DNA of 64,000 bases from an uncultured Alphaproteobacteria bacterium. GTDB lineage: Bacteria; Pseudomonadota; Alphaproteobacteria; RF32; CAG-239. The DNA is taken from positions 47,115-111,114 of the forward strand of contig CALXPT010000001.1 in NCBI GenBank assembly GCA_944390355.1. Direction: 5' to 3'. A program made the translations under genes and the position numbers. Under the pieces are notes generated by a model, which had not been told where the DNA came from, made no database searches, and worked only from the letters and a program-made list of their open reading frames with translations. Positions within the stretch are counted from its first letter, which is position 1; each line of letters opens with the position of its first letter. Below are positions 7,555 to 50,928 of this stretch, one piece after another.

Positions 7555-8224
7555 TTGTCGGTAGCTCCCTGATTTTTAAGAGCATTTTATGGGCGGCATC
7601 TTGCTCGGCCAGTTTTTTGTTGCGTCCCTGCCCGACTTCCGGAGATACTCCCTTGAGATTGACCGCTATGTGATACAGCGGATCATGCTCCGAACCTTCT
7701 CTTGAAACAACCTCATAACTCGGAACGCCTAATCCTTTGATATGTGAAACTTCCTGAAGAAGAGTTTTGCTGTCTTTGGGCGGGGTTATGCTTTTGTGTA
7801 ATAAGTCTTCCCAATTACGTTTAACATATGTCCATGCTTGTTCATAGCCGCCATCCAGATATATTGCGCCTATCACCGCCTCCCCAACATCGCACAAAAC
7901 ATTGTCATTTTCCCTTATGTCTTCGTTGGCAATGTGAACAAACTCATCTATCTTTAAGTTTCTTGAAACTTCCGCAACCGTCTCCTTGCAGACCAACAGC
8001 GTATGCCTTTGCGACAAGCTCCCCTCCGGCTCGTTTGAAAATGTTTGATAGAGCATTGTTGCTACACACAGGCCTAAAACCCTATCACCCAAAAACTCCA
8101 AACGTTCGTAATTCTCGGATATTTTGCCGGTACAACTTCCGTGTGTCAGTGCCTGTTCCAGAAGTTTTGTGTTCTTAAACTTATACTGCAGATGGTATTC
8201 CAATTCTTCGGGATTTTTTATCAT
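7544..8224 (-). CDS. rnc: Ribonuclease III
   Basis: RNase III signature ERLEFLGDRVL plus C-terminal dsRBD. Confidence 0.9.
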   Translation of the reverse strand: MIKNPEELEYHLQYKFKNTKLLEQALTHGSCTGKISENYERLEFLGDRVLGLCVATMLYQTFSNEPEGSLSQRHTLLVCKETVAEVSRNLKIDEFVHIANEDIRENDNVLCDVGEAVIGAIYLDGGYEQAWTYVKRNWEDLLHKSITPPKDSKTLLQEVSHIKGLGVPSYEVVSREGSEHDPLYHIAVNLKGVSPEVGQGRNKKLAEQDAAHKMLLKIRELPTNVK

Positions 8225-8232
8225 TGTTCCAC

Positions 8233-8953
8233 CTATTTGATTTTACTAAACAAGCGGCTCCAGCGAATCTGCCTCGGCAAATTCCATATTTGATACCATG
8301 GTTTATCACTACTCTCATACGAGAAAAATAATGCTCGCGCCTTACCGACCAAATTTTCGTAAGGAACAAAGCCAACGTTAACTCGGCTGTCATCCGAACG
8401 GTCGCGGTTATCGCCCATCATAAAGTAGTTTCCTTCCGGAATGGTGATTTCGGGTATGTTATCATAGACTTCCGAATCCGATATCTCAATTATTTTGTGC
8501 TTAACTCCTTCCGGCAAGGTTTCTATGTATTGATTGTATCTCTCTACGTTTCCGTATTTATCTCTTAACACAAAATCTTCAATCTGCTCTCTGGCTACTT
8601 GCTGTCCGTTAATATATAACCGGCCTTCTTCTAATTTGATTTTGTCTCCGGGGAGGCCTATCACTCTTTTTATGTAGTCTTTTTTATTATCCGCCGGATA
8701 TTTGAATACCACTACATCGCCACGCTCGGGCTCATCTGCCCAAATGCGCCCGTCAAACAGCGGAATGCTGAACGGAAATGAATGTTTTGAATAGCCGTAA
8801 GTATATTTTGAGACAAACAAAAAATCTCCAACATAAAGACTCGGGTACATCGAACCTGAGGGTATCTTAAAAGGTTCAAAGAAAAACGTGCGTATAAATA
8901 CGGCTATTAACACCGCATAGATTATCGTTTTTATCGTATCCCACAAACTTTCT
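8233..8953 (-). CDS. lepB: Signal peptidase I
   Basis: S26 motifs (SGSMYPSL, GDNRDRSDDSR); start at MDKEES with AGAGG Shine-Dalgarno after the acpS stop. Confidence 0.85.
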
Positions 8954-8975
8954 TCTTTATCCATTTTTGCCTCTA

Positions 8976-9383
8976 TTAATTTTCTTCTATAATCACGACG
9001 GCCTGCGCCCACGGATAGTCATCACTCAAACTGATGTGCAAGCTGATTTTTTTATCGGTCTTTTGCATTTTTTCAAACTGTTGTAATGCTCCACCCGAAA
9101 GCTTGAGTTCCGGTTTGCCGGCATTGTTGTGTATGGTTTGAATATCGCGGAGATAAATCCCGTTTCTAAAACCCGTGCCTAATGCTTTGGAGCACGCTTC
9201 TTTGGCCGCAAAGCGTTTTGCTACCGAGGCGGCGTATTCCTGCTTGGAAATAAAATCTTTTGCCGCCAGTTCTTTGATTTCATCTGCACCCAAGGCTCTG
9301 TCAATCAAGCGATGACCATACGCATCTATCGAACGTTCAAAACGTGAGATGTTTGTTATATCCGAGCCAATACCCAAAATCAT
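8976..9383 (-). CDS. acpS: Holo-[acyl-carrier-protein] synthase
   Basis: MILGIGSDI start, 4'-phosphopantetheinyl transferase fold, about 135 aa. Confidence 0.85.
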   Translation of the reverse strand: MILGIGSDITNISRFERSIDAYGHRLIDRALGADEIKELAAKDFISKQEYAASVAKRFAAKEACSKALGTGFRNGIYLRDIQTIHNNAGKPELKLSGGALQQFEKMQKTDKKISLHISLSDDYPWAQAVVIIEEN

Positions 9384-9399
9384 GTTTTCTTTTCCTTTC

Positions 9400-11547
9400 T
9401 TATTGTGCCGAACGCGCTACATAGCTGACTACTTTGCTTGCTTTAAGTGCCGTTATTATATCATTTAGGTGTTTGACATCCTTAACTTCAACATCAATTA
9501 ATATTTCAAAATAACTCACCGTGCGATAAATAATATTCAAATTGGCAATATTGCCGTTATTGCGGGCTACCAGATTTGATAAATCCGCTAATGCTCCAGG
9601 TTCGTTTGAAAGCATTATTTTTAATCTGCCGACATGGAGTTCGGATGAGGCATCATCCCCCCATGCGATATCCAGCCACCGCTCCGGTTCGTTTGAAAAT
9701 TTTTCAAGAACTTTGCAGTCTATGGTATGAACGGCAACGCCTTTGCCCGTGGTTACGATGCCGACTATTCTATCCCCAGGCAGTGGGTGGCAGCAGCCCG
9801 CAAAATGAACTGCCATTCCGGGGACCAGTCCCTTTATTTTCAAAGGCTCACTCTTGCTTTTCTTTTTCAAAACACTCTTTAGGCTCGGGACTTTTATCGC
9901 CTTGACGACTTTTTCTAATTTGGACTGTTTATAGGCCGGATATACCGCGCGCAAAACATCCCAACCGGTAATTAATCCTTCTCCGACTTTGGCATAGATG
10001 TCATCGATTGATTCCGCCTCAAAATTGGGCAAGACATTTACTAATCCTTTTTCGGAAAACTCCAAATTTTCCGACTTAAACTGCCGCTCTAAAATATCTC
10101 GTCCCAAGGCTATAAACTGGTCGCGCTTATGGGCTCTGACATAGCGTCTGATGGCCGCTTTGGCTTTGCCGGTTACAACAAAACGCTCCCACTCGGTTGA
10201 GGGGTGTTGGGCTTTGGAGGTTAAAACCTCTACTTGGTCTCCGTTTTGCAAAACCGTGCGCAACGGTTTAATCTCACCGTTAATTTTGGCGCCGACACAG
10301 GTATCTCCGACTGAAGAATGAACCGCATAGGCAAAGTCTACCGGCGTTGAGTTCACCGGCAAGCCAATCAGGTCTCCTTTAGGCGTGAAGCAAAATACTT
10401 GGTCATTATACATCTCAAGTTTGGTATTTTCCAAAAACTCTTCCGGATTTTGTGCCTGATCCAAAATCTCAAGCAACTCTCTAATCCAGCGGAAATTGCG
10501 TCCCTCAACTTTTTGCCCTTGCTTATAAGCCCAATGTGCGGCAACGCCCTTTTCGGCAACCTCATGCATTTCCGTCGTGCGAATTTGTATTTCTATTCTC
10601 GTGTTTTCCGGCCCGATAACTCCTGTGTGAATAGACTTATAGCCGTTGGGTTTCGGCGTCGAGATATAGTCCTTAAAACGGCGCGGAATCATGTGGTATT
10701 TGCTATGTATTACCCCTAATGCCTGATAGCAGGTACCGATATCGTCAACGCAAATTCGAAAGGCCATAATATCGGATAATTGTTCAAAGGAAGCATTCTT
10801 TTGCTGCATCTTGCGCCAAATTGAATATGGGGTCTTTTCTCGGCCGGTTATACTCGCCTTAATGCCGTTTTCTTCCATGTCTTTTTGCAGTTGTTCTATG
10901 ATTTTCGGAACAATGTTGCTGTCCTTTTCGCGCAAAAAGTTTAAACGGGCAACAATGGAATCGTGCGCCTCTTTATGCAGCTCGGCAAACGCTATTTCTT
11001 CCAGCTCGCTCTTGACTTCCTGCATACCGATACGCTCGGCCAAAGGCGCGTAAATGTCTAATGTTTCTTTGGCTATACGCGCACGTTTTTCGGGTTTGCA
11101 AAAGTGCAGAGTCCGCATATTGTGCAAGCGGTCTGCCAACTTTATTAACAAAACGCGGATATCATCCGACATGGCCAGCAAAAGTTTGCGAAAATTTTCG
11201 GCCTGTTTGCTGTTGACTGACTTTTGCTCAATCATTGCTAATTTGGTTAAACCATCAACGATTGATGCTACTTGTTCGCCAAAAAGAGAGCGTATTTCTT
11301 CAATCGTGGTGTCGGTGTCTTCAACCGTGTCATGCAAAAGTCCGGCAACTATTGAGCTACAGTCCAGTTTGAATTTGGTTAAAATACCGGCGACCTCTAT
11401 CGGATGCGAATAGTAGGGGTCGCCCGATTCACGAAGTTGGGCACCGTGTTTTTTCATAGCAAAGACATAGGCGCGGTTTAGAGCATCTTCATCTGCGTCG
11501 GGGTCATAGGATTTTACTAATTCAACAAGCTCATACTGTCTTAGCAT
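9400..11547 (-). CDS. spoT: Bifunctional (p)ppGpp synthetase/hydrolase (Rsh/SpoT)
   Basis: HD hydrolase domain (HDTVEDT), RelA/SpoT synthetase domain, TGS and ACT domains; 715 aa. Confidence 0.9.
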   Translation of the reverse strand: MLRQYELVELVKSYDPDADEDALNRAYVFAMKKHGAQLRESGDPYYSHPIEVAGILTKFKLDCSSIVAGLLHDTVEDTDTTIEEIRSLFGEQVASIVDGLTKLAMIEQKSVNSKQAENFRKLLLAMSDDIRVLLIKLADRLHNMRTLHFCKPEKRARIAKETLDIYAPLAERIGMQEVKSELEEIAFAELHKEAHDSIVARLNFLREKDSNIVPKIIEQLQKDMEENGIKASITGREKTPYSIWRKMQQKNASFEQLSDIMAFRICVDDIGTCYQALGVIHSKYHMIPRRFKDYISTPKPNGYKSIHTGVIGPENTRIEIQIRTTEMHEVAEKGVAAHWAYKQGQKVEGRNFRWIRELLEILDQAQNPEEFLENTKLEMYNDQVFCFTPKGDLIGLPVNSTPVDFAYAVHSSVGDTCVGAKINGEIKPLRTVLQNGDQVEVLTSKAQHPSTEWERFVVTGKAKAAIRRYVRAHKRDQFIALGRDILERQFKSENLEFSEKGLVNVLPNFEAESIDDIYAKVGEGLITGWDVLRAVYPAYKQSKLEKVVKAIKVPSLKSVLKKKSKSEPLKIKGLVPGMAVHFAGCCHPLPGDRIVGIVTTGKGVAVHTIDCKVLEKFSNEPERWLDIAWGDDASSELHVGRLKIMLSNEPGALADLSNLVARNNGNIANLNIIYRTVSYFEILIDVEVKDVKHLNDIITALKASKVVSYVARSAQ

Positions 11548-38964: not shown

Positions 38965-39840
38965 ATGATGAAAAATGGTTACCTATTGCTGTGTGCAACA
39001 GCATTAAGCTTGGCTTGTGTATCTAATCAAGCTCAAGCATCAATTAATTTTAATCTCAAAGCACCTCCGATTCTAAATGTGGTTGACAGACACACACAAC
39101 ACACACCGAATTTATCAGCCCGAAGCTTGTCTTCCCCCTTTTCTAAAGAAAGAGAATTTAAGGTTGCGCAAGTTTGTTGGATAACCGATACGGATGACTG
39201 CGGCGGGGCGGATTTTGTCGGTACGGATTTAGAAAGCGGCACACCGGAAGTTATTCCCCCTGGGGGCGGAGATGCCGAAAGCTGTATCCGAATGGGGTAT
39301 GATAAAACCTCGTGTCCGAGCGGCTATAAGGGCAACAAATATTGCCCGCTCAATAATGCCTATTTTGCCGAATGTATTCCGGATTGTCCGAGCAGTTACG
39401 TAACTTGTCAATCGCCACAGCAAGGCGTTGGAGAGGTTTGCGGCAACGGGTTATACAAAGACTGCTGTATGCCGACGTGTTCGTCAGATTATAAATATAC
39501 GCTGGGTTCAATTCCCGACGGTTATGAGGCGGACGGCGAGCCCTGTATGGAATGCGACGAGGGCGGATTGAAAATCAAAGAAAAATACAAAATCAAAGAG
39601 AAAGACTGTTCTGGCTTTATAGATTGCGGCGATATGGGATGCAAGGCCGGAGCGACGACGTGTCAAAGCGGAAGTCAGGTTAAGTGTTCGGAATGTGAAC
39701 CCTGCCCGAATCTTGGCACGGAGAGCGAATGTCCGCCGTGCTCGGTTTGCACTTATGAAGAATGCTCGAATTTATATGTTGTAACCGGTTGTGCAACCGG
39801 CTGCACCGACTGGTGCGACTATTGCGCGTTTGAACAATAA
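38965..39840 (+). CDS. Secreted cysteine-rich protein, cassette copy 2
   Basis: ~80% identical to the 13297..14157 product (same signal peptide, same Cys framework, identical C-terminus GCATGCTDWCDYCAFEQ). Confidence 0.7.
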   Translation: MMKNGYLLLCATALSLACVSNQAQASINFNLKAPPILNVVDRHTQHTPNLSARSLSSPFSKEREFKVAQVCWITDTDDCGGADFVGTDLESGTPEVIPPGGGDAESCIRMGYDKTSCPSGYKGNKYCPLNNAYFAECIPDCPSSYVTCQSPQQGVGEVCGNGLYKDCCMPTCSSDYKYTLGSIPDGYEADGEPCMECDEGGLKIKEKYKIKEKDCSGFIDCGDMGCKAGATTCQSGSQVKCSECEPCPNLGTESECPPCSVCTYEECSNLYVVTGCATGCTDWCDYCAFEQ

Positions 39841-39874
39841 CTTAGAACTGAAATTATTATCAAGGAGATGTGTT

Positions 39875-40789
39875 ATGCAAAAATTTTTATTATATTCATC
39901 AGCTTTGTTTCTATTGAGCGGTGCTGCGGAAGCAGCCTGTATTCAAACCCCGACTTGTTCAAGCTTGGGATATACCTCGAGTTCATCCTGCAACGGCGGA
40001 ATCAAATGCCCGTTCGGCAATGCATGGAATTGTACAATCATAGATAAAATCACGGAAATCACGAATAAGATTACAACCATTGAAGAAAAAATAACCGTGA
40101 TAGAAGAGAACGGTGGCAGCAGCTCTACGCCTGATTACAGTAATTGCAAAATCGGATCTATCTTGTATTCGGATTTTAGCTGTAACGAAAATGTTGTTTA
40201 TACTAAAGAACCAATCGGCGTGGTGTTTGATGAGGTAAACCATTTGGCTGTTGCTTTGGAGGAAAAAGAAAATGTTGCGTGGTCAACGACTGCTTTTGAT
40301 ATTCCAGGGCTCGATTTGCACCCAAGTGATGCTGAATATGATGGATGGGGAAAAAAGAACACTCGTGTAATTTATGAATATTGCAAAGCAAACGGCAAAA
40401 GCTGTCCGGCAGTGGAATATGCCTATGAATACACAACCGCCGGTACAAGTGCCGGTGATTGGCATTTGCCATCTTATGTGGAGTTTGACTATATTAGCAC
40501 TAACACGAGTACCATCAATGATACTATTAAGAAAATAAATAAAAAGCCTCTTTATGATTATTCAAATTACCATGGAAACATGCAGCAACATGTTTATTAC
40601 GTCTATTATTGGACTTCAACAGCGATAGATAAACAAAATGTTTATACATTCGGGGGTGATTATTATGGCGATAGGCGTATTATAGAAAAAACATTAATAA
40701 ATCATACAGATACCGGAAGTAGTATTTATGATGGATTTACTGGTTATTATCATTATGTTTACATATCTCGTCCAGTCATTGCTTTCTAA
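39875..40789 (+). CDS. Secreted DUF1566 (Lcl-like) protein with a shorter NKIT repeat tract, cassette copy 2
   Basis: N-terminal ~55 aa nearly identical to copy 1, fewer heptad repeats, diverged DUF1566-like C-domain (GDWHLP, YWTST). Confidence 0.65.
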   Translation: MQKFLLYSSALFLLSGAAEAACIQTPTCSSLGYTSSSSCNGGIKCPFGNAWNCTIIDKITEITNKITTIEEKITVIEENGGSSSTPDYSNCKIGSILYSDFSCNENVVYTKEPIGVVFDEVNHLAVALEEKENVAWSTTAFDIPGLDLHPSDAEYDGWGKKNTRVIYEYCKANGKSCPAVEYAYEYTTAGTSAGDWHLPSYVEFDYISTNTSTINDTIKKINKKPLYDYSNYHGNMQQHVYYVYYWTSTAIDKQNVYTFGGDYYGDRRIIEKTLINHTDTGSSIYDGFTGYYHYVYISRPVIAF

Positions 40790-40797
40790 AAAAAATA

Positions 40798-40833
40798 AAG
40801 GCTGTTGGGGAAGCAACAGCCTTTATTTTTTAT
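40798..40833. terminator. Bidirectional terminator
   Basis: aaaggctgttg-gggaag-caacagccttt followed by a T-run. Confidence 0.65.
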
Positions 40834-41495
40834 TCTCTTGTGGTGTTGGCGAGTAGCCAGTTTTTAAATTCTACAACATCCCTCACCTCGGGAATCCAGT
40901 TTAAGTCCGTCGGCAGGTCGGTGGTGAACTCGCTCCGCATTCTGACCGGATGCGCCCCGACGTTTATGGCGGCGTACTGATTGTATATTCGGTCATCAAC
41001 CAAAACGGTTTCTTCCGCCTTTAGGCCATATTTTTCAAAGCAAGCTTTCAACATATCTTCTTTGGCCGTGTCGTGCATAAATTTGCCGTGCTGAACGCAT
41101 TCTATGGTCAAAAAATCACTCACGTCTTTTAACAAATGGTTTAATAATTTTTTCTTGGTTTCAACATCAAAAGTTGCCGACATGGTAAACTGTTTGTACC
41201 CCAAGTTATGCAATTCTTTCAATGTTTCAATCACATTCGGGTATAGCGGGCGGTTGGAAAAAAACTCATAACTGCTACAAAAGTCCTTATCCATCTCCAC
41301 GCCCAAGCTCGGATGGGTTTTCAACTCCAAGGCTCCGTATTTTTCCTCAACAGGCAGCACCTTGGGCAAGTCCGACCACTCTATGTCCTTATACAGCGGC
41401 GCATATTTGGGATGCTTGGTTAAAAAATTATAGTACGCGTAATTTAAATTAGCCAAAACCCCGTCTACATCCCAGAATATGTTTTTGATTATCAT
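40830..41495 (-). CDS. HAD-family hydrolase (5'(3')-deoxyribonucleotidase-like)
   Basis: Motif I FWDVDGVL. Confidence 0.5.
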   Translation of the reverse strand: MIIKNIFWDVDGVLANLNYAYYNFLTKHPKYAPLYKDIEWSDLPKVLPVEEKYGALELKTHPSLGVEMDKDFCSSYEFFSNRPLYPNVIETLKELHNLGYKQFTMSATFDVETKKKLLNHLLKDVSDFLTIECVQHGKFMHDTAKEDMLKACFEKYGLKAEETVLVDDRIYNQYAAINVGAHPVRMRSEFTTDLPTDLNWIPEVRDVVEFKNWLLANTTRE

Positions 41496-41583: not shown

Positions 41584-42330
41584 ATGCAAAATTACACTCA
41601 AGATTATTTGCTCGATAAGCAGGTCAAAATTTTTCAACCGATTAACGGATACCGCGCCTCAACCGATGCCGTGTTCTTATCCGCTATGGTTTCCTCCGTT
41701 AGAAACGGTGATAAAATTTTGGATGTCGGCTCCGGTACGGGGGCTGTTTCTCTTTGCTTGGCGGAGAGATTCAAACATCTGCAAATTTCTATCAACGGTT
41801 TTGAAATTCAACCCGAACTTGCCGAGCTTGCAAACTTAAGTGCTAAAGAAAACGGTTTTGATTTTCTTAAATTTATTAATACCGACATTGCCTCTCCCTT
41901 GCCCGATGGACTCCGATTTTGCAGCTTTAATCATGTGGTTTCGAATCCCCCCTATGCGCTGAAAGATTTGCCCTCTCCCAACAAAAGCAAAGCTACCGCT
42001 CATAACCTAAATCATATGACCTTAACCCAATGGATTAACTTTTGTATCAAAATGACGGCTCCCAAAGGTTTTATCTACCTTGTTAATCGGGCTGAGGCTC
42101 TGGATGAAATTTTATTTGCTTTATACCCTAAAACCGGAAATATTCATATTTTGCCGCTCTTTTCCAAACAGGGGCAAGAAGCCAAGCGCGTGCTTGTTTC
42201 CGCACAAAAGGACTCTAAAGCTCCTCTTATCCTGCATGAGGGAATTGTTGTTCATGATGAAAACGGGGCATACTCTCCCGCGGCTGAAAAAATTCTGCGA
42301 GCCGGCAAGGCTTTTAGTCTGTCCTACTAG
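41584..42330 (+). CDS. N6-adenine methyltransferase, TrmN6/YfiC-like (tRNA m6A37)
   Basis: SAM motif VLDVGSGTG and catalytic NPPY (VVSNPPYA); start chosen at the internal Met, giving ~248 aa. Confidence 0.65.
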   Translation: MQNYTQDYLLDKQVKIFQPINGYRASTDAVFLSAMVSSVRNGDKILDVGSGTGAVSLCLAERFKHLQISINGFEIQPELAELANLSAKENGFDFLKFINTDIASPLPDGLRFCSFNHVVSNPPYALKDLPSPNKSKATAHNLNHMTLTQWINFCIKMTAPKGFIYLVNRAEALDEILFALYPKTGNIHILPLFSKQGQEAKRVLVSAQKDSKAPLILHEGIVVHDENGAYSPAAEKILRAGKAFSLSY

Positions 42331-43549
42331 TCCCGAAGTATGCTATCGGCTTATCGTTCATTGTTGCACTTTCTAATGCCTGATAGGCTTCGCTTAGAAG
42401 TTTTTTATAAGAATCGGCCGGCTCCGGATATGTGCATACGCCAAAACGGCTCTTGATTTGGTATGTTGTAAAATTATCTTCCAACGGAGCTTCTAAAGTT
42501 GATTTAATTTGGGATATTTTGGCGGTAAGCTTTTCTTCCGAATCTATTTGCGGTATGAGCAAGCAATACTCGTTTTCTTTTGAGCCATGCGCCAACGTAT
42601 AATTGCTTTCAAAACAAGTCAGCACTCGTGCCAAAATTTTTTTAAATGCCTGCTTATCCTCTCTCTTTTCAAAAATCGACGGATTTTCTATTCTGAAATA
42701 ACCTACCGCACTTTGCTCTCTGCCAAAACTAATCATGCTACTGCCTGACGGGTGGGTGCGTAATGCAACCTTTACTCTGTCTTCAAATAGCTGGTATATC
42801 GGTAATCCCGTTTCCGAATTGTAAAGTGAAACCTTGTTCTCTCCGATCATCGGGGATGTTCCAAGCAATATAAAACTAAAAGAATGGTCGTCCGGTATAT
42901 ATATTCCCTCAAAATCGACCTTTATCACGTCTCCGTTTTTGTTTTTTAAGCCTATGGGTATAACTTGTCCTTCTGTTAATACGCCGCCTATTCCAACGGA
43001 TACTTTGTCCCAATATTCCGAGGATACATACTGAAAAAAGTTGTTATCTATTACATCAAATTCGTTTTCATAACCGATTTGTTTTAAAAAAGTTGCGTTT
43101 ACATATACTATTTTATCATCACTAATTATTGCTACCAAGCGAGGAGATTTGGCAAAAACTTTGAGAATTAAGTCCCTTAGTGAAAGTGTGATATTTTCCA
43201 GATTGCTTTTCACCTCCGGTTCTTGCCTATTATGACTTTCTTTTGAAATATACTCTCTTTCTATTTCTTCCGTATCTTCTTGTGCTGCGTACGGCGGCAG
43301 TTCCGGTATCGCTTCCAATTTCATTGACTGTGCCGCCGTAGGCTGAGAAGCCTTTATTGCTTTTGGGGGATTATTATTTTCCGGCTTTCTATCTTCTTCT
43401 CCATCCAACGCTTCCAACTTGTCCAACAACACGTTGTAATCTTTTGCTTTAGCTAAAATAGAGGTATCTATCTCTTTTAGCGAATTATCGTTGCTAATTG
43501 TTTCCAAATATTCCAAAGACGAAAAATCTTCTATCGGATTTTGCATCAT
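42314..43549 (-). CDS. PAS plus degenerate GGDEF-domain protein with acidic N-terminus
   Basis: PAS-like segment followed by a GGDEF-like domain in which the GG(D/E)EF site reads GSKENEY; C-terminal GGDEF elements (SRFGVCTYP, AYQALESA) are retained. Confidence 0.5.
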   Translation of the reverse strand: MMQNPIEDFSSLEYLETISNDNSLKEIDTSILAKAKDYNVLLDKLEALDGEEDRKPENNNPPKAIKASQPTAAQSMKLEAIPELPPYAAQEDTEEIEREYISKESHNRQEPEVKSNLENITLSLRDLILKVFAKSPRLVAIISDDKIVYVNATFLKQIGYENEFDVIDNNFFQYVSSEYWDKVSVGIGGVLTEGQVIPIGLKNKNGDVIKVDFEGIYIPDDHSFSFILLGTSPMIGENKVSLYNSETGLPIYQLFEDRVKVALRTHPSGSSMISFGREQSAVGYFRIENPSIFEKREDKQAFKKILARVLTCFESNYTLAHGSKENEYCLLIPQIDSEEKLTAKISQIKSTLEAPLEDNFTTYQIKSRFGVCTYPEPADSYKKLLSEAYQALESATMNDKPIAYFGTSRTD

Positions 43550-43687
43550 CTATATTCTCCGTTATTTCCTTTTCTATATAGATTAATATTTATTAAAAAA
43601 AATGCAATTAGTTAAATTTTTGCTGTTTATTAATAAATTTGTTTTATTTTAACTTATAAGTATTTAGTTTTTTTAGAGAATATTCAT

Positions 43688-45763
43688 ATGAGTGAAGAAG
43701 AGCTTTTAACACAGCATATTAATCAGGAGACAGAAAGTACTCCACAAACAGATGCTCAAGAAACTGTTTTGGGGATGCCGCTTTCTAAAGAAACTTTTAA
43801 AAAAGTTTTAATCAAAGATCGTTTTGAGATTAATTTTGATGCTTCTATCCCTTGGTTAAATAATAATGGGGCTACCGCCTATGCCGTTTCGGATAGAATC
43901 GACACGGCTCGCAAACTTTTTGCTCTTGTGTGTGATGGTGAGACTTCTCCCAGACTTTCTATTCTACCATATCTTAAATCTATTGATAATCCGGCTCTCT
44001 TAAAACTTGTCGAATTCGGAACGGTTTGTTTGCCCGAAACAAAAAAGCATCGTATGGTTCTTATTTATGAGATGCCTTTGGGTGGAAAAGTTTTTGAAAA
44101 TGGAGTTTGTACCCTTGATTTTAAAAACAATCATGAGAAATTTAAAAATGTTATTTTAAGTTTTTTGGTTTTGTCTGAAACGCTTAAGAGCATGAACATT
44201 ACTCATCGCGCTATTCGCCCCGATAACCTCTATTTTATTGATGAAAACAAAAGCGAGATTGTTATTGGTGATTGTATTGCCGCTTTTCCTGCTTATTATC
44301 AACCTGCTGTTTATGAGGCTATTGACAGTCTATATGCTGACAAATTAGCAAGAGGAAACGGCAATGAGAAAAATGATATTTATTCTATCGGTATGACTGC
44401 TCTCGCTCTTTATGTCGGACACGAAATTTCTACCAATATTACTGATGCTGAGACCCTAAGATTGAAAATTCGTAAAAGTTCTTTTTCTTTTATTTCTAGT
44501 GTCGAAAAAATTCCTACTGATTTTAGCTCTTTATTTAAAGGTATGTTAAATGATGACAGCGGATTGCGCTGGGGCTATTCTCAGGTTTTGAGTTTTTTTT
44601 CCGGAAAACAAGTCAGCTTGGGAAATAACTCAAGTTCCGAGCGTCCCAAAAGAGCCTTAAACATTGATGGAGAAAAAGTCTATATGCCAAGAGATGTGGT
44701 ATATAGCATGCATAATAATATTTCTGAAGCTTATGATTTGATTATCCGCGGAAAACTTTCTGATTGGGCTAAAAACGGTTTGGAAAACGAAAAACTCGCA
44801 TCTCAAATCGATGCCATCGTCAAACAAGAGTTATCTTCGGCAGGAAATAAGGATTTAACTATCGCTCGCATCTCTATACTTATTGACCATTCTTTGCCTA
44901 TTCGCTATCGAAATATCTCTTTCTTTCCTGACGGTATTGCCAAAGCCGTTTTCCATGAAATGAAAAATAAAAAATCTATTAAAGATTATAACGATATTTT
45001 TTCTACCGATTTGATTAAACTTTGGTATCAGATGCAGGAAAGTTTACGCGCTCCCGGAAATATTACTGAATTTCGGGTCTATATCATGCGATCTGAAATC
45101 GGATATGGTATTGAACGTATTATTTATGATATTGACAATGATTTACCTTGCATCAGCTCATTATTTGAAAACGAATTCGTTTCTAGTGCTCCTCAGGTCT
45201 TGAAAGCATTAAATGCATCTTTTGAGCAAACAAATATTACCTCTCAACCGTATGACAGATCAATTATTGCCTTTCTTAGATGCAAAATGGGCAAGAAAAT
45301 CGACAATTATTTGGCAGGATTATATTCAAATCGCAGTGAAATTAAAGCTTCTGCTATCTTGCAACTCTATTCCATGATGCAAACTAAATTCGGCCCTTCC
45401 GAACTTGTTAATTTGGCTCGGTGGTTGGTTAATTATTGTAAACCGATGATTTTGGTCTATCATAATAAAAAATACCAAAAATATTTAGAAAAAGAGCTTG
45501 TTAAGATTTATCAACATGGAAAATTATATGAAATTTTGAATTTACTTGAAAATGAAGCTGCTTTGGAAAAAGACAGAAATGATTTTGCGGCTATCCTTAA
45601 CGAAGTTAATCTTTTGCTCCTTGAAAAAAATAAAATTTCTGATTATATGGCAAAACTTGGAGAATCCGCTCGAGCTTCAGCTCTCAAACTGGCTTCTTTC
45701 GTTTCTGTTTTAGTTATGATTGCTTCTTTTGCCTACAATCTTATCTCTTGGGTGTTAAATTAA
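43688..45763 (+). CDS. Protein-kinase-like fold protein (probable pseudokinase) with C-terminal TM anchor, 691 aa
   Basis: Subdomain VIb-like HRAIRPDN (catalytic Asp replaced by Ala), VII-like IGDCIAA, IX-like DIYSIGMTALAL; C-terminal hydrophobic tail; AT-rich gene. Confidence 0.45.
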   Translation: MSEEELLTQHINQETESTPQTDAQETVLGMPLSKETFKKVLIKDRFEINFDASIPWLNNNGATAYAVSDRIDTARKLFALVCDGETSPRLSILPYLKSIDNPALLKLVEFGTVCLPETKKHRMVLIYEMPLGGKVFENGVCTLDFKNNHEKFKNVILSFLVLSETLKSMNITHRAIRPDNLYFIDENKSEIVIGDCIAAFPAYYQPAVYEAIDSLYADKLARGNGNEKNDIYSIGMTALALYVGHEISTNITDAETLRLKIRKSSFSFISSVEKIPTDFSSLFKGMLNDDSGLRWGYSQVLSFFSGKQVSLGNNSSSERPKRALNIDGEKVYMPRDVVYSMHNNISEAYDLIIRGKLSDWAKNGLENEKLASQIDAIVKQELSSAGNKDLTIARISILIDHSLPIRYRNISFFPDGIAKAVFHEMKNKKSIKDYNDIFSTDLIKLWYQMQESLRAPGNITEFRVYIMRSEIGYGIERIIYDIDNDLPCISSLFENEFVSSAPQVLKALNASFEQTNITSQPYDRSIIAFLRCKMGKKIDNYLAGLYSNRSEIKASAILQLYSMMQTKFGPSELVNLARWLVNYCKPMILVYHNKKYQKYLEKELVKIYQHGKLYEILNLLENEAALEKDRNDFAAILNEVNLLLLEKNKISDYMAKLGESARASALKLASFVSVLVMIASFAYNLISWVLN

Positions 45764-46263
45764 TGATGGACTCTAATAAAAAATCTGGATTTAATCTTAT
45801 AAAGGCTGTTAAAGGGTTTTCTTTGCTGCAGAAAGTTTTGCTTGCCTTTTTCTTAGTTATTTTAACCATCGTTTCTTTCCCGATTGTTTTTATTTTGATA
45901 TTTGGTTTGTTACCGACTATTACCGTGATGTATACTGCTCCTGATAATTATGATAAGCAGCTTATTATCGGTTGTTTTAATATTTCCGGCGTATTCTTTT
46001 ATTTGTTTGGGTTGCTTGCCGGTTTTGGAGAAGGCGTTACCAATGGCATTGCTGATAATATATTCATGATTATTGTCATGCTCTCTACGGCAGCTATTGG
46101 TGTTATTGTCTATTCCGAGCTTCCTAATCTTTATGCTTATATTTATAAAATTTCAGCACAAAAACGCATTGAAAAAATTAATGCCCGTTTAGAAAAACTT
46201 AGAGAAGAATGGGGCGAAGAACTTGTTCAGCGTACCAAAAGTCAAAATGAAAAAGGAAATTAA
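45763..46263 (+). CDS. Membrane protein (4 TM), translationally coupled to the kinase-like gene
   Basis: ATG overlaps the upstream stop (TAATG). Confidence 0.5.
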   Translation: MMDSNKKSGFNLIKAVKGFSLLQKVLLAFFLVILTIVSFPIVFILIFGLLPTITVMYTAPDNYDKQLIIGCFNISGVFFYLFGLLAGFGEGVTNGIADNIFMIIVMLSTAAIGVIVYSELPNLYAYIYKISAQKRIEKINARLEKLREEWGEELVQRTKSQNEKGN

Positions 46264-46350
46264 TTGTCATTAACTCAAGGCTGAAGTTGACTCTTTTATT
46301 TCTTCTTGCTATTTTTTTTATGGGTTAGGTCGTTTTGTTTTGAGGGGCTT

Positions 46351-47409
46351 ATGTGGCAGTATATTAACGCGCTGATTGATCGTATTGTGTTGAAAATTAA
46401 ACCTCATGCATCTAAAATCGAAAGGTTTTATAAAAAGCATTATAGTAAAAAATTATCGGCTTGCTCTCAGAGTTTTTTGAAACTTTGTGAGCCTTTTCTG
46501 AAAACATCTCTTAAAAGCAGAAAAAAAATTCTTGAAAATAATCTGTTTGAAAAAATCAGGCTTCTCTGCGTGCTGGTTGTTGTGTTTTTTTCTGCCGTGC
46601 TTGTTTATTCCGGCTCGTGCTGTTTGCTTTTGGCTTTGTTCTTAAATTCTTTGGTTATTTGGTTCTTGTTCCGTGGTTACAGAGCGGCTTATTTATGCGC
46701 CTTGGTTTGTTTTTTGTTTGAGCTTGCATTGGCTTTTAATTGGGTAGTGCTATCGGTTTTCGTTATTGCAGCTGCCGTTCTGTCTTGGGGATTTAGAATC
46801 GAAAATACACGTATCTCCTTAGAAAAATCTTTTCAATTACGTCGGACTTATTTTGATATTTTGAGAGATTGCGTTGCCGCTTCCTTGCTTGCTCTTTTTG
46901 TGTTGCTTGTCGGATTTATTCTGTTTTGGATTTCCGGTGAATCCGCTCAGGAAAAAGAGGCTCAGCTTGTCAAACAGCAACAGCTCGGTATCGTTGCCGG
47001 AACGGCGGCTAGGCATTTGTTCGGTTATGAGGATTTTTGCAAAAATCAGGGATATGTTTTGAAAAACTATCCGGTGGTGTTTGCTAAATTTTTTGCTCCC
47101 GAAATTTCTAAAATCGATACTGCTTTGAAAAAACAAGGCAGCAGTTTGCAAATCTTTTATCAAAATGCCAAAGATGCTTTCGGGCGTCGCCTTTATAACA
47201 GTATTGCCGAAGAAATTGAGACCATTCGTCAACAGGCCATTGTTGAAATGGTTTCATTAAAGAAGAACGTTAATCCTCAAGATGTTTTGTGGGACAGCGA
47301 TATTGACGGTATGATTTCAACAACAGAGGCTTGCGTGCTCTTTGATGAAATGGCCGAAAGCATTTTGTTGCGCCCTAATGCCTCCTTTGATGAAATGAAG
47401 AAATTTTGA
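46351..47409 (+). CDS. Polytopic membrane protein, hypothetical
   Basis: GAGGGG Shine-Dalgarno before MWQY; multiple TM segments; 4-nt overlap with the next gene. Confidence 0.45.
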   Translation: MWQYINALIDRIVLKIKPHASKIERFYKKHYSKKLSACSQSFLKLCEPFLKTSLKSRKKILENNLFEKIRLLCVLVVVFFSAVLVYSGSCCLLLALFLNSLVIWFLFRGYRAAYLCALVCFLFELALAFNWVVLSVFVIAAAVLSWGFRIENTRISLEKSFQLRRTYFDILRDCVAASLLALFVLLVGFILFWISGESAQEKEAQLVKQQQLGIVAGTAARHLFGYEDFCKNQGYVLKNYPVVFAKFFAPEISKIDTALKKQGSSLQIFYQNAKDAFGRRLYNSIAEEIETIRQQAIVEMVSLKKNVNPQDVLWDSDIDGMISTTEACVLFDEMAESILLRPNASFDEMKKF

Positions 47410-48629
47410 TGTTGAATTTTATTTGGGCAGGTTTCTTTATCGTTGGTTTTGTTGCGGCTTGCCTGCAATCTTTTGTTGACGGGGCGGTATGGAATAACAT
47501 TAGTATGGGAATATTTGAAGCCGCCAAAACAGGTTTTCGCATTTCTATTAATTTAACCGGTTTGTTATGCTTATGGATGGGTATTCTGAAAATTGCCGAA
47601 TCGGTTGGCATCACTGAATTTTTGGCAAAGCTTCTCAGGCCTTTGTTTGCTAAAATTTTTCCCGATGTGCCGCAAAATTCTCCCGCCTTTGGCTCGATTA
47701 TCATGAATATTGCCGCTAATATGCTCGGCTTAGATAATGCCGCTACACCTATGGGGTTAAAAGCCATGGAACAGCTCCAAGAAATTAATCCTCATAAATC
47801 TCGTGCTTCCAATGCTCAGGTGCTGTTTATCGTCTTAAATTCTTCGGCTCTGACTATCATTCCGATTGCAATTTTAATGTATCGTATGGAATTGGGCGCG
47901 GCGAATCCGAGTGCCGTTTTTATTCCGATTTTGATTGCTACTTCCGTTTCAACATTGGTGGCTTTTCTTTCGGTGGCTTTGCTACAAAAACTTAATATTT
48001 TTAACCGCGTCGTTTTAGCTTATTTAGCTGTTTTTCTTTGTTTTATTGCCTTTTTGACTTATGGTTTTTCTTTATTGCCGGCAGACAAAAAGCTCTCCTT
48101 ATCTACCGAAATCAGCAATTTTATTTTAATTGCCGTTATTGTCTTGTTTATTTCTCTCGGTTTATTAAAAAAAATAAATGTCTATGAGACTTTTATTGTG
48201 GGGGCTAAAGAAGGTTTTGACGTTGCAGTTAAAATTATTCCTTATCTTGTTGCCATGCTTTGTGCCATAAGCGTGTTCAGAGCCTCCGGTGCTTTTGATT
48301 TGTTGATTGCGGCTTTAGATAAATGTTTTAGTTGGCTGGGGATGGATACCGATTTTGTTCCGGCTTTGCCTACCGCTTTTATGAAGCCCTTATCCGGCAG
48401 CGGCGCGCGTGCCATGATGATTGAAACCATGCAAAATTTCGGACCTGATTCTTTTCCGGCTTTTGTTTCTTGTATCGTTCAGGGGGCTTCCGAAACAACC
48501 TTTTATGTTTTCGCAGTTTATTTCGGGGCAGTGCGTATCTCCAAAACAGGTTCTGCACTCGGGTGCGCTCTTTTGGCCGATTTAGCCGGTATTATCTCAG
48601 CTATTTGGGCTGCTTATTTGTTCTATTAA
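47406..48629 (+). CDS. Nucleoside-recognition (Gate) domain membrane protein (SpmA/SpmB/YjiH-like)
   Basis: Two Gate-domain halves. Confidence 0.55.
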   Translation: MMLNFIWAGFFIVGFVAACLQSFVDGAVWNNISMGIFEAAKTGFRISINLTGLLCLWMGILKIAESVGITEFLAKLLRPLFAKIFPDVPQNSPAFGSIIMNIAANMLGLDNAATPMGLKAMEQLQEINPHKSRASNAQVLFIVLNSSALTIIPIAILMYRMELGAANPSAVFIPILIATSVSTLVAFLSVALLQKLNIFNRVVLAYLAVFLCFIAFLTYGFSLLPADKKLSLSTEISNFILIAVIVLFISLGLLKKINVYETFIVGAKEGFDVAVKIIPYLVAMLCAISVFRASGAFDLLIAALDKCFSWLGMDTDFVPALPTAFMKPLSGSGARAMMIETMQNFGPDSFPAFVSCIVQGASETTFYVFAVYFGAVRISKTGSALGCALLADLAGIISAIWAAYLFY

Positions 48630-49662: not shown

Positions 49663-50928
49663 TTAATTTTTTAGGTATCTAAACGTACATTTTTTATTTA
49701 AATACGGGTCTTCTTTGATATTGGCTATTCCTTTAGATATGATTTCTATTACCCGCGGGTCATTATCGTATTCCGTATGGGCCGTTACCGGATTTACGAC
49801 GCCTACTCCGAATGCTGATATAATATCTGCTATGTTAATATCAATATTTGTTACCGACGGGCAGATACGAGAATCGATATAATTATTCACAAAATCCTGC
49901 GTAATGCCATAGCTTAACAAGTCATTCGGGTCTGAAAATGCTATAATTTTGGTTTCTTTAAAAACTCTGTCCTGATTTTTTTCGCCCTTCGCCGTACAAT
50001 AATTTTTTATTTGGTTGGTTACTTTTGGTGCCGGTCGGCCGATTTGCAACAAAGGCAACTGATTGGCCAGCATAAAAACGGTTATTTCTTTTTGTTTTAA
50101 TAGATTTATGATTTGTTCCGCCTCATGTCTGTTTTCTTTATTTGACGGCGGAAGAGTTTTTATTGTGGCGATTTCATCGGCTACACCGCTGACACTATCA
50201 AGTAAAATGCGGCTTCCCAAAGAGTGCGTGATAAAGATTATGTTTTCTTTACTCAAGTCCTTTATTTGATTGTATGATGAAACTTGGCAGAGTGATGTAT
50301 CATTATCCTCTAAATCTTCCCAACTGCGGCTTAGCATCCAGCAAGTTGCCTCTTTGGTGGCATTTAGAATTTGCGTTTTATCATCAACCAAATACATCAT
50401 CGGGTCCGGCAAAACATCATTTAAAAATGTTTTCATCGTATTATTAAATGCGGCTCGCTTATATGTATATGTGCCCGATGTATCATAATCCAGCACGCGT
50501 TTGGCTTCATCGGTGATATTTGACCAATTCAACTCATAGAAAATAACCGTCTTTTTCTCATCTTCACTTTGCATTCTGGTTACGCGCAAATTACCGATAT
50601 TTGTTTTTTTATCATGCGGGCTGACTAATGTCAGATTTTTATCTTCCTTAGACCATGTGGTCAGATTTAACGATCTGGCTAAATTTTCTTTAATGCGGCT
50701 CGAATATCCGGGGACATGTGAACCTACTCCGTGTATCATCATTACTTTTACGATATCTCCTTGCGACAGATAATCTTCTATTCCAAAAAAAGAATCGCCT
50801 GAGATTTCACATATTTTTTTATCCTCAGCACTATTATTTTCAATTATGGCCTGCGCTACTCCTTTTCCGAATGATTCACATCCCGATACGAATATGACAA
50901 GAGCTAATACCGCCAAAATTTTTTGCAT
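49663..50928 (-). CDS. Lipoprotein with alpha/beta-hydrolase (lipase/esterase) GxSxG motif
   Basis: Lipobox LVIFVSGC; nucleophile elbow ITHSLGS. Confidence 0.5.
   Translation of the reverse strand: MQKILAVLALVIFVSGCESFGKGVAQAIIENNSAEDKKICEISGDSFFGIEDYLSQGDIVKVMMIHGVGSHVPGYSSRIKENLARSLNLTTWSKEDKNLTLVSPHDKKTNIGNLRVTRMQSEDEKKTVIFYELNWSNITDEAKRVLDYDTSGTYTYKRAAFNNTMKTFLNDVLPDPMMYLVDDKTQILNATKEATCWMLSRSWEDLEDNDTSLCQVSSYNQIKDLSKENIIFITHSLGSRILLDSVSGVADEIATIKTLPPSNKENRHEAEQIINLLKQKEITVFMLANQLPLLQIGRPAPKVTNQIKNYCTAKGEKNQDRVFKETKIIAFSDPNDLLSYGITQDFVNNYIDSRICPSVTNIDINIADIISAFGVGVVNPVTAHTEYDNDPRVIEIISKGIANIKEDPYLNKKCTFRYLKN

Follow-up and report, generated by a model that had tools for sequence, protein, structure and literature searches.

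The 64,000-nucleotide stretch of DNA analysed here (the window; contig CALXPT010000001.1 of an uncultured alphaproteobacterium, positions 47,115 to 111,114) carries a gene for a protein of 691 amino acids (43688..45763, forward strand) which possesses a protein kinase fold but lacks the residues of catalysis, and which is followed by a coupled gene for a membrane protein of 166 amino acids (45763..46263, forward strand). With a probability of roughly 0.6, the two are interpreted as a vertically inherited chromosomal two-gene operon present across Rhodospirillales-type Alphaproteobacteria, which would encode a complex of an inner-membrane pseudokinase with a protein of four transmembrane (TM) helices. 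The 691-residue open reading frame (ORF) is not a chance one, because 189 full-length homologues exist (43-99% identity among the matches listed from the initial protein search). Its limits are also supported by independent gene calls on two metagenome contigs encoding a protein of 99% identity (P0001), which yielded identical genes of 691, 166, 352 and 406 amino acids. The stop codon of the pseudokinase gene (TAA, 45761-45763) overlaps the ATG at 45763 that opens the 166-residue ORF, giving TAATG. A sequence-only reading of this DNA had described the length of the product, its motifs, its hydrophobic tail and the TAATG junction, and all of these were confirmed in the sequence.

Kinase-like fold and loss of catalytic residues

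The N-terminus of the protein (residues 1-37; 43688..43798, forward strand) is acidic, falls in variable alignment columns and is predicted to be disordered, with predicted local distance difference test (pLDDT) values of 28-30 at residues 1-30 and below 50 throughout residues 1-35 of the AlphaFold2 (AF2) model. It precedes a bilobal pseudokinase domain (residues 38-305; 43799..44602, forward strand), which was identified by profile matches, AF2 and Foldseek. Pfam Pkinase (PF00069) matches residues 101-301 of the window protein (E=3e-7; 30.5 bits, just below the gathering score of 31.7) and also matches 26 of 33 relatives, with a best E-value of 5.7e-13. Searched against PDB sequences, the profile of the 33-member family showed homology to calcium-dependent protein kinases (CDPK; E=3e-13), the alignment placing hrairadN on HRDLKPEN and lGDCaa on vDFGls. 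The AF2 model built from the 33-sequence alignment has a mean pLDDT of 86 and a predicted template modelling score (pTM) of 0.79, and Foldseek comparison of it with the PDB returned kinases only (WNK3, Rad53, CDPK1, CaMKI, GCN2, PAK1 and PknB), at target TM-scores of about 0.65-0.73 and with WNK kinases on top. The protein thus has a bilobal Hanks-type kinase fold and belongs to the Protein kinase-like superfamily. The sequence-only reading had proposed such a fold and had named the lack of any kinase match by profile or structure as the result that would speak against it; Pfam, the PDB profile search, AF2 and Foldseek all gave kinase matches instead.

Residue frequencies were counted over an alignment of 369 sequences, namely the window protein and 368 proteins of 600-800 amino acids, of which 121 share at least 40% identity with it and 247 share less. 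Where VAIK is expected in strand beta3, hidden Markov model (HMM) alignment to CDPK places FALVC (residues 78-82; 43919..43933, forward strand): the position of the beta3 lysine is occupied by Val81 in the window protein, by I, V or L in 348 of the 369 sequences and by lysine in none. In the window protein, the beta1-beta2 loop has IPWLNNNGATAY instead of the glycine-rich GxGxxG, and no counterpart of the alphaC glutamate was found in the HMM alignment to CDPK. From alignments, the catalytic loop reads HRAIRPDN (residues 173-180; 44204..44227, forward strand) within the context ITHRAIRPDN (H173-N180), so that the position of the catalytic base, 175, is alanine. Across the family this position is A in 241, S in 49, N in 31 and G in 30 sequences (351/369 together); it is non-acidic in 363/369, and HRD occurs in 0/369. 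DFG is replaced, again from alignments, by GDC (residues 194-196; 44267..44275, forward strand; GDC-I takes up residues 194-197, nucleotides 44267-44278) within VIGDCIAAF (G194-D195-C196). Its position 195 is acidic, with D in 241 and E in 123 of the 369 sequences, and the D is invariant in the gut clade. A further context in the window protein is NDIYSIGMTALAL, while DIYSIGMTALAL begins at residue 230, with the DIYSIG motif present.

A rescue of the missing lysine as in WNK kinases, which supply it from strand beta2, was considered and rejected: lysine is the consensus at the corresponding position 63, yet it is found in only 135 of the 369 members (37%), and the window protein has threonine there. 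His173, Arg177 (at the position of the catalytic-loop lysine) and Asn180 are near-invariant, and Gly194 and the acidic residue 195 are also kept. The activation segment, GDCxAxFPAxxQPxxxETIESxxAxxxxRGNG, ranks among the best conserved stretches of the protein, conserved positions in it and in the P+1 region being P201, Q205, E210, R222-G-x-G225, D230 and Y232. Of the features expected of a competent kinase, the catalytic aspartate, the beta3 or a compensating lysine and the glycine-rich loop are therefore missing, and the metal-binding asparagine and the acidic residue at the DFG position are present. Such a family-wide pattern is the signature of a long-standing pseudokinase, in which selection would act on surfaces rather than on chemistry. 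The absence of the catalytic aspartate had already been noticed, and the proposal of a probable pseudokinase made from it is here supported and extended to the beta3 lysine, the alphaC glutamate and the glycine-rich loop, all lost across the family. As the catalytic residues are absent family-wide, the public annotation of these proteins as 'serine/threonine protein kinase' is misleading.

C-terminal domain, membrane anchor and coupled partner gene

The pseudokinase domain is followed by a mostly helical domain with two beta-hairpins (residues 320-650; 44645..45637, forward strand), which is as conserved as the kinase domain and possesses the motifs FPDG, WYQEQ, GYGIERIxYDxDxDLPCxS, PYDR, LRCKMGKK, GP and YHN. 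No Pfam, NCBIfam or PADLOC family matched residues 320-650 and, as modelled, this large and conserved domain of about 330 residues appears to be without a recognisable structural relative. A hairpin followed by three helices is seen twice in the model, but an internal duplication was not supported by hhalign comparison of the two halves (E=0.39, probability 0.15). The AF2 model shows a long helix at residues 623-652 and, after it, a C-terminal TM helix (residues 661-690; 45668..45757, forward strand), which is identified by Kyte-Doolittle hydropathy, the method used for all hydrophobic segments reported here, and by the AF2 helices, and which is kept in all aligned relatives. It is the only hydrophobic segment of the protein, which ends one residue later (691), in agreement with the tail anchor proposed beforehand. 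Because a signal peptide is absent and the anchor is C-terminal, the bulk of the pseudokinase should face the cytoplasm.

The partner gene is supported by its ORF, by synteny and by homologues. Synteny was counted over 80 loci of the gut lineage, and the partner gene is present at 79 of these. Its start overlaps the pseudokinase stop by 4 nucleotides at 48 loci and by 1 nucleotide at 16, and a gap of more than 1 nucleotide never occurs. The translational coupling suggested from the TAATG junction therefore holds across the gut lineage, the two genes overlapping or abutting at 79/79 loci. The protein has a lysine-rich N-terminus, hydrophobic segments at residues 15-60 (a length that fits two helices), 66-89 and 95-121, a basic C-terminal helix (AQKRIEK...EEWG) and the conserved motifs GLLPT, G(C)xN and ELPN; it probably spans the membrane four times, both termini being cytoplasmic. 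It belongs to no Pfam, NCBIfam or PADLOC family. A profile search with it found 605 proteins and, among the matches listed, these are of about 150-175 amino acids, from the same taxa, unnamed and without a Pfam domain.

Five distant genomes were also examined: those of Azospirillum, Thalassobaculum and Nisaea, and metagenome-assembled genomes (MAGs) of Magnetospirillum and Stellaceae. A gene for 159-169 amino acids without a Pfam domain follows the pseudokinase gene in 5/5 of them. The Azospirillum and Thalassobaculum partners share approximately 20% identity with the window partner, together with the motifs LP, G..PT, G..N..G, M.GAA..G..Y and EWG, and a Thalassobaculaceae pair bears the consecutive locus tags P1U88_22735 and P1U88_22740. 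Since the upstream and downstream neighbours vary while the partner stays, the two-gene pair is the conserved unit.

Distribution, descent and genomic context

One genome per GTDB species was scanned, which gave 122 loci, and every one of these belongs to a MAG of the Alphaproteobacteria from gut or rumen (among them Candidatus Scatocola and 'uncultured Azospirillum sp. UMGS'). Searched against 1.84 billion cluster representatives (50% identity clusters), the profile of the C-terminal domain matched 1259 proteins at E<=1e-3, 445 of them at E<=1e-30; the best 150 of the 1259 are mostly of about 600-790 amino acids with the domain at the C-terminus, some being shorter partial sequences. Named members come from Elstera, Azospirillum, Niveispirillum, Thalassobaculum, Nisaea, Magnetospirillum and Stellaceae, and are labelled 'serine/threonine protein kinase' or 'hypothetical protein'. 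The family hence extends over the Rhodospirillales sensu lato, free-living genera from soil, freshwater and the sea among them. The best match among the species genomes is only 67% identical to the window protein, even though the patterns used in the scan fit that protein, and among the records examined the 99%-identical P0001 was placed on metagenome contigs only (one of them from a BRZ_QP sample); the set of species-representative genomes thus seems to lack the species of the window.

The composition of the pair is unusual within the window. The pseudokinase gene has a GC content of 0.350 (0.289 at third codon positions, GC3) and the partner gene one of 0.335, whereas the 33 ORFs of the 64-kb window that served as baseline have a mean GC of 0.421 +/- 0.033 and GC3 of 0.427 +/- 0.059. 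The two genes are the most AT-rich of the 33, approximately 2.1-2.3 standard deviations (SD) below the mean. The high local AT content reported by the sequence-only reading is thus real, but its interpretation as acquired, effector-like content was not borne out. In 70 related loci the GC of the gene minus that of its flanks is -0.003 +/- 0.014, so the low GC seen in the window is not shared by them. With respect to the closest species genome (L001), the pseudokinase is 67% and the partner 69% identical, and the flanking methyltransferase, Gate-domain and CorA proteins are 72-75% identical. The flanks in the window are of housekeeping type (mpl-type Mur ligase, LD-carboxypeptidase, KdsB-type cytidylyltransferase, HAD hydrolase, methyltransferase and CorA), and no tRNA genes were found in the window. 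Patchy occurrence, a deviant composition common to the orthologues, a mobile context and a secretion signal would be looked for in an acquired effector; the related genomes instead show broad and syntenic presence, in 122 species genomes and in free-living Rhodospirillales, with kept neighbours. Recent acquisition is ruled out by this order-wide distribution together with the fixed synteny, the flank-like GC and the housekeeping flanks; horizontal transfer was rejected, synteny and divergence fitting vertical descent, and the local AT-richness is better read as a weak codon bias of the window genome. This corrects a tempting misreading, in which an AT-rich gene with a eukaryote-like fold is taken for an effector.

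Upstream, the pseudokinase gene shares a divergent promoter region (43550..43687; from an alignment of 14 upstream regions) with a gene for 411 amino acids (42314..43549, reverse strand). A conserved, -35-like block, TTGCTGTTTATTAA, lies at 43620-43633. TTAA-N7-TTAA is the consensus of the CtrA box. It occurs in perfect form in 20 of 78 related upstream regions, where shuffling predicts 4.3 and other spacings are found in 0-11 regions; loci bearing it include L001-L006, L011-L015, L019, L027, L037, L039-L041, L053 and L077. The perfect box mostly starts 87-92 nucleotides before the ATG, beside a conserved TTGC(G/T)NTTT(A/G)TTAA block. A CtrA box in the window itself was rejected: it shows AAAA-N7-TTAG in the columns of the alignment, and the TTAA pair close by, at 43583-43596, has the N6 spacing (TTAA-N6-TTAA), so the box is eroded there. 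A perfect box was not found in the Azospirillum and Thalassobaculum upstream regions either, and the box is taken as a lead for a subclade only, with a regulatory meaning that is putative.

The 411-residue protein has an acidic N-terminal region, and Pfam and NCBIfam matches place a PAS and a degenerate GGDEF domain in it. The Pfam GGDEF match (27.8 bits) is confined to the latter half of the domain; the Pfam PAS matches are weak and are accompanied by an NCBIfam PAS S-box match. The protein is unlikely to make cyclic di-GMP because the GG[DE]EF signature is degenerate, being replaced by GSKENEY in the window gene and by RGLK.YQF in a 77-sequence consensus. This gene lies upstream of the pair at 77/80 gut-lineage loci, and a methyltransferase gene is present at 38/80; the upstream neighbours in the distant genomes vary (purA, HU or AnmK).

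Downstream of the pair, a convergent rpoH-like (sigma-32-like) gene and rluD are found in 4/5 distant genomes and at one gut locus, L043. The rpoH-like gene and the rluD-type pseudouridine synthase gene were located directly after the pair at 10439-12407 of L043, and at 8589-10621, 7580-9589 and 7539-9505 of L084, L087 and L089 (Thalassobaculum, Nisaea and Stellaceae), and in many genera the pseudokinase/partner pair adjoins rpoH. Deep conservation marks this gene order, yet the window departs from it, a 352-residue gene, a Gate-domain gene and CorA intervening there. The first of these encodes a polytopic membrane protein (46351..47409, forward strand) that matches no Pfam, NCBIfam or PADLOC family and lies outside the conserved module; the second encodes 406 amino acids with two Gate/nucleoside-recognition domains (47409..48629, forward strand). 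The 352-residue ORF begins after a gap of 43-88 nucleotides from the partner gene and overlaps the Gate-domain gene by TGATG (47407-47411), and these two genes co-occur at 6/80 loci. Their position between the pseudokinase pair and CorA looks like the result of an insertion specific to this lineage. The pseudokinase gene had been described as coupled to membrane protein genes in the plural: this stands for the 166-residue gene (45763-46263), and it fails for the third ORF, which was rejected as an operon member, being found at 6/80 loci and coupled to the Gate gene instead.

Three other genes of the window deserve mention. The protein of a HAD-family hydrolase gene (40830-41495, reverse strand) is 96% identical to that of L001, compared with 41-75% for its neighbours, and three other loci have counterparts of 78-85% identity; either an unusual degree of constraint or a recent exchange would account for this. 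An ORF at 39791-40789 (forward strand) encodes a cysteine-rich protein of 332 amino acids with a signal-peptide-like N-terminus, no Pfam match and a GC of 0.383, and one at 49663-50928 (reverse strand) encodes 421 amino acids with a lipoprotein-like N-terminus (LVIFVSGC), no Pfam match and a GC of 0.374.

Proposed role and comparison with known pseudokinases

The proposed arrangement is that of a Hanks-type pseudokinase which its C-terminal tail anchor fixes to the inner membrane on the cytoplasmic side, the order of parts being a disordered acidic N-terminus, the kinase fold, the helical domain of about 330 residues, the long helix and the TM helix. The overlapping start and stop codons would lead to both proteins being made in fixed proportion, and contacts between their TM and juxtamembrane helices would join them in a single complex at the membrane. 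For the dead kinase domain, together with the helical domain, a phosphotransferase activity is not envisaged; the two domains may instead act by binding or by switching conformation, without catalysis. In the gut lineage, the module may in addition be co-regulated with the divergently transcribed sensor-like protein with PAS and degenerate GGDEF domains. Complex formation and such a binding or switch role are considered rather probable; they would be analogous to what is described for EssB/YukC and for the MviN-linked pseudokinase domain.

Several observations weigh against this interpretation. The near-invariance of His173, Arg177 and Asn180 and the acidic residue at 195 might be explained by the binding of a nucleotide or a metal, or by unconventional chemistry, and the putative role as scaffold or switch is deduced from the loss of catalytic residues. 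The structural conclusions depend on AF2 models whose alignments comprised 33 and 18 sequences. In distant genera the two genes are adjacent without overlapping, with gaps of 3-63 nucleotides. The PAS/GGDEF-like gene is absent at its position in Azospirillum, Thalassobaculum, Nisaea, Magnetospirillum and Stellaceae, so its association with the pair is one of the gut lineage only.

The retained asparagine, acidic pair and basic residues are what would be expected if the protein were an atypical but active enzyme, transferring phosphate or another group by means of non-canonical residues, with the helical domain or the partner as substrate or regulator. Kinase folds performing other chemistry have been described, as in AMPylation by SelO and glutamylation by SidJ (PMC12599244). 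This explanation is nevertheless judged unlikely: no compensating lysine is in place, threonine standing here at the WNK position and lysine in 37% of the family; the catalytic-base position is non-acidic in 363/369 sequences; the glycine-rich loop has given way to IPWLNNNGATAY and the alphaC glutamate cannot be aligned; and Asp195 becomes glutamate in one third of the family.

A horizontally acquired, eukaryote-like effector delivered to the host would be in keeping with a gut bacterium, with best sequence and structure matches to eukaryotic kinases (CDPK, CaMK and WNK) and with the pair being the most AT-rich of the 33 window ORFs, about 2 SD below the mean. It is largely refuted by distribution and synteny, and is regarded as very improbable. 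Orthologues of the same architecture and with the same partner are found in free-living soil, freshwater and marine genera, synteny is kept at 77-79/80 loci, the divergence is like that of the flanks and the 70 loci show no GC deficit; the window has housekeeping flanks and contains no mobile-element or tRNA genes. A C-terminal membrane anchor, the lack of a signal peptide and a co-translated polytopic partner also disfavour secretion, since a tail-anchored protein of this kind would face the cytoplasm. Matches to NCBIfam MAD6 (E=3e-8) and PADLOC PD-T4-6 (E=2e-4) raised the further prospect of a kinase component of an anti-phage defence system (MAD6, PD-T4-6), which was rejected and is hardly credible: the MAD6 score is 32.6 bits against a cutoff of 460, that of PADLOC is about 12-18 bits, and both are weak matches to a generic kinase C-lobe only. 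The remaining genes of these systems do not occur in the vicinity, PADLOC gave no match to the neighbouring genes, and the pseudokinase gene is single-copy, core-like and syntenic across the order, whereas defence islands are patchy.

The inner-membrane pseudokinase and its partner are of interest as bacterial pseudokinases are only starting to be catalogued and almost none has been assigned a function. Deep conservation of a non-enzyme implies an important membrane-associated regulatory role. The pair is found in two genera amenable to genetics, Azospirillum and Magnetospirillum, and also in gut Alphaproteobacteria that are abundant and uncultured, and its fixed two-gene form offers a clear experimental starting point.

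In its text, an atlas of bacterial serine/threonine kinases (bSTKs) covers approximately 300,000 sequences and describes 35 canonical and seven pseudokinase families, namely ActPs1-3, GLW, CP1, DYD and DLHK (10.1101/2025.01.12.632604), and the text of a companion review gives the motifs of the seven, the functions of which are mostly unknown (PMC12599244). The seven likewise possess a kinase fold with conserved degradation of catalytic motifs. The window family differs from them in HR[A/S/N/G]IRxxN, in G[D/E]C for DFG and in FAL[I/V]C at beta3, and further in its Rhodospirillales-type taxon, its helical domain of about 330 residues between kinase and TM helix, and its adjacent four-TM partner gene. 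Among the motifs given in these texts for the seven families, none combines HR[A/S/N/G]IRxxN with G[D/E]C; Alphaproteobacteria and an HRA motif are mentioned in neither text, supplementary tables aside (10.1101/2025.01.12.632604; PMC12599244), and full-text literature searches found no paper on the family. It is thus probably undescribed, set apart from the seven by the motif descriptions in these texts. The novel aspects are the motif set, the accessory domain and the obligate partner gene, membrane-anchored bacterial pseudokinases being a recognised class in themselves. A bolder proposal is tentative, at somewhat less than even odds: that of an eighth, ancient pseudokinase family confined to Rhodospirillales-type Alphaproteobacteria, with a helical domain of new fold and an obligate four-TM complex, controlling a core process of envelope, polarity or stress, and which in part of the gut lineage may be under a CtrA-type TTAA-N7-TTAA box.

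GLW is a proteobacterial family with a C-terminal TM helix, in which GLW replaces HRD and a poly-Leu/Trp motif replaces the beta3 lysine (PMC12599244). These motifs are absent in the window protein, which has THRAIR and LFALVC at the respective positions. The C-terminal TM helix is common to GLW and the window protein (residues 661-690) but is non-discriminating, since according to the text of the atlas 25 of the 42 bSTK families possess such a feature (10.1101/2025.01.12.632604). WNK1 and WNK3, the closest solved structures, keep both HRD and DFG and take their lysine from beta2, whereas the window family has lost HRD. The best functional analogy for the proposed mechanism is EssB/YukC of the type VIIb secretion system (T7SSb) of Firmicutes, a monotopic protein whose cytoplasmic N-terminal pseudokinase has a degraded glycine loop and catalytic motifs and acts as a scaffold recruiting membrane machinery (PMC12599244). 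The window protein differs in having no Pfam match to EssB/YukC at E<=1, in its Gram-negative host and in the lack of T7SS genes nearby; EssB also continues outside the membrane, whereas the window protein ends one residue after its TM helix. The MviN/MurJ-linked pseudokinase domain of Mycobacterium tuberculosis (ActPs3) is intracellular and regulates a polytopic protein without catalysis (PMC12599244). The window pseudokinase resembles it as an intracellular pseudokinase tied to a polytopic membrane protein; that of ActPs3 is fused to a 14-TM flippase, whereas the one described here is a separate protein, with a small four-TM partner of no detectable relation to MurJ.

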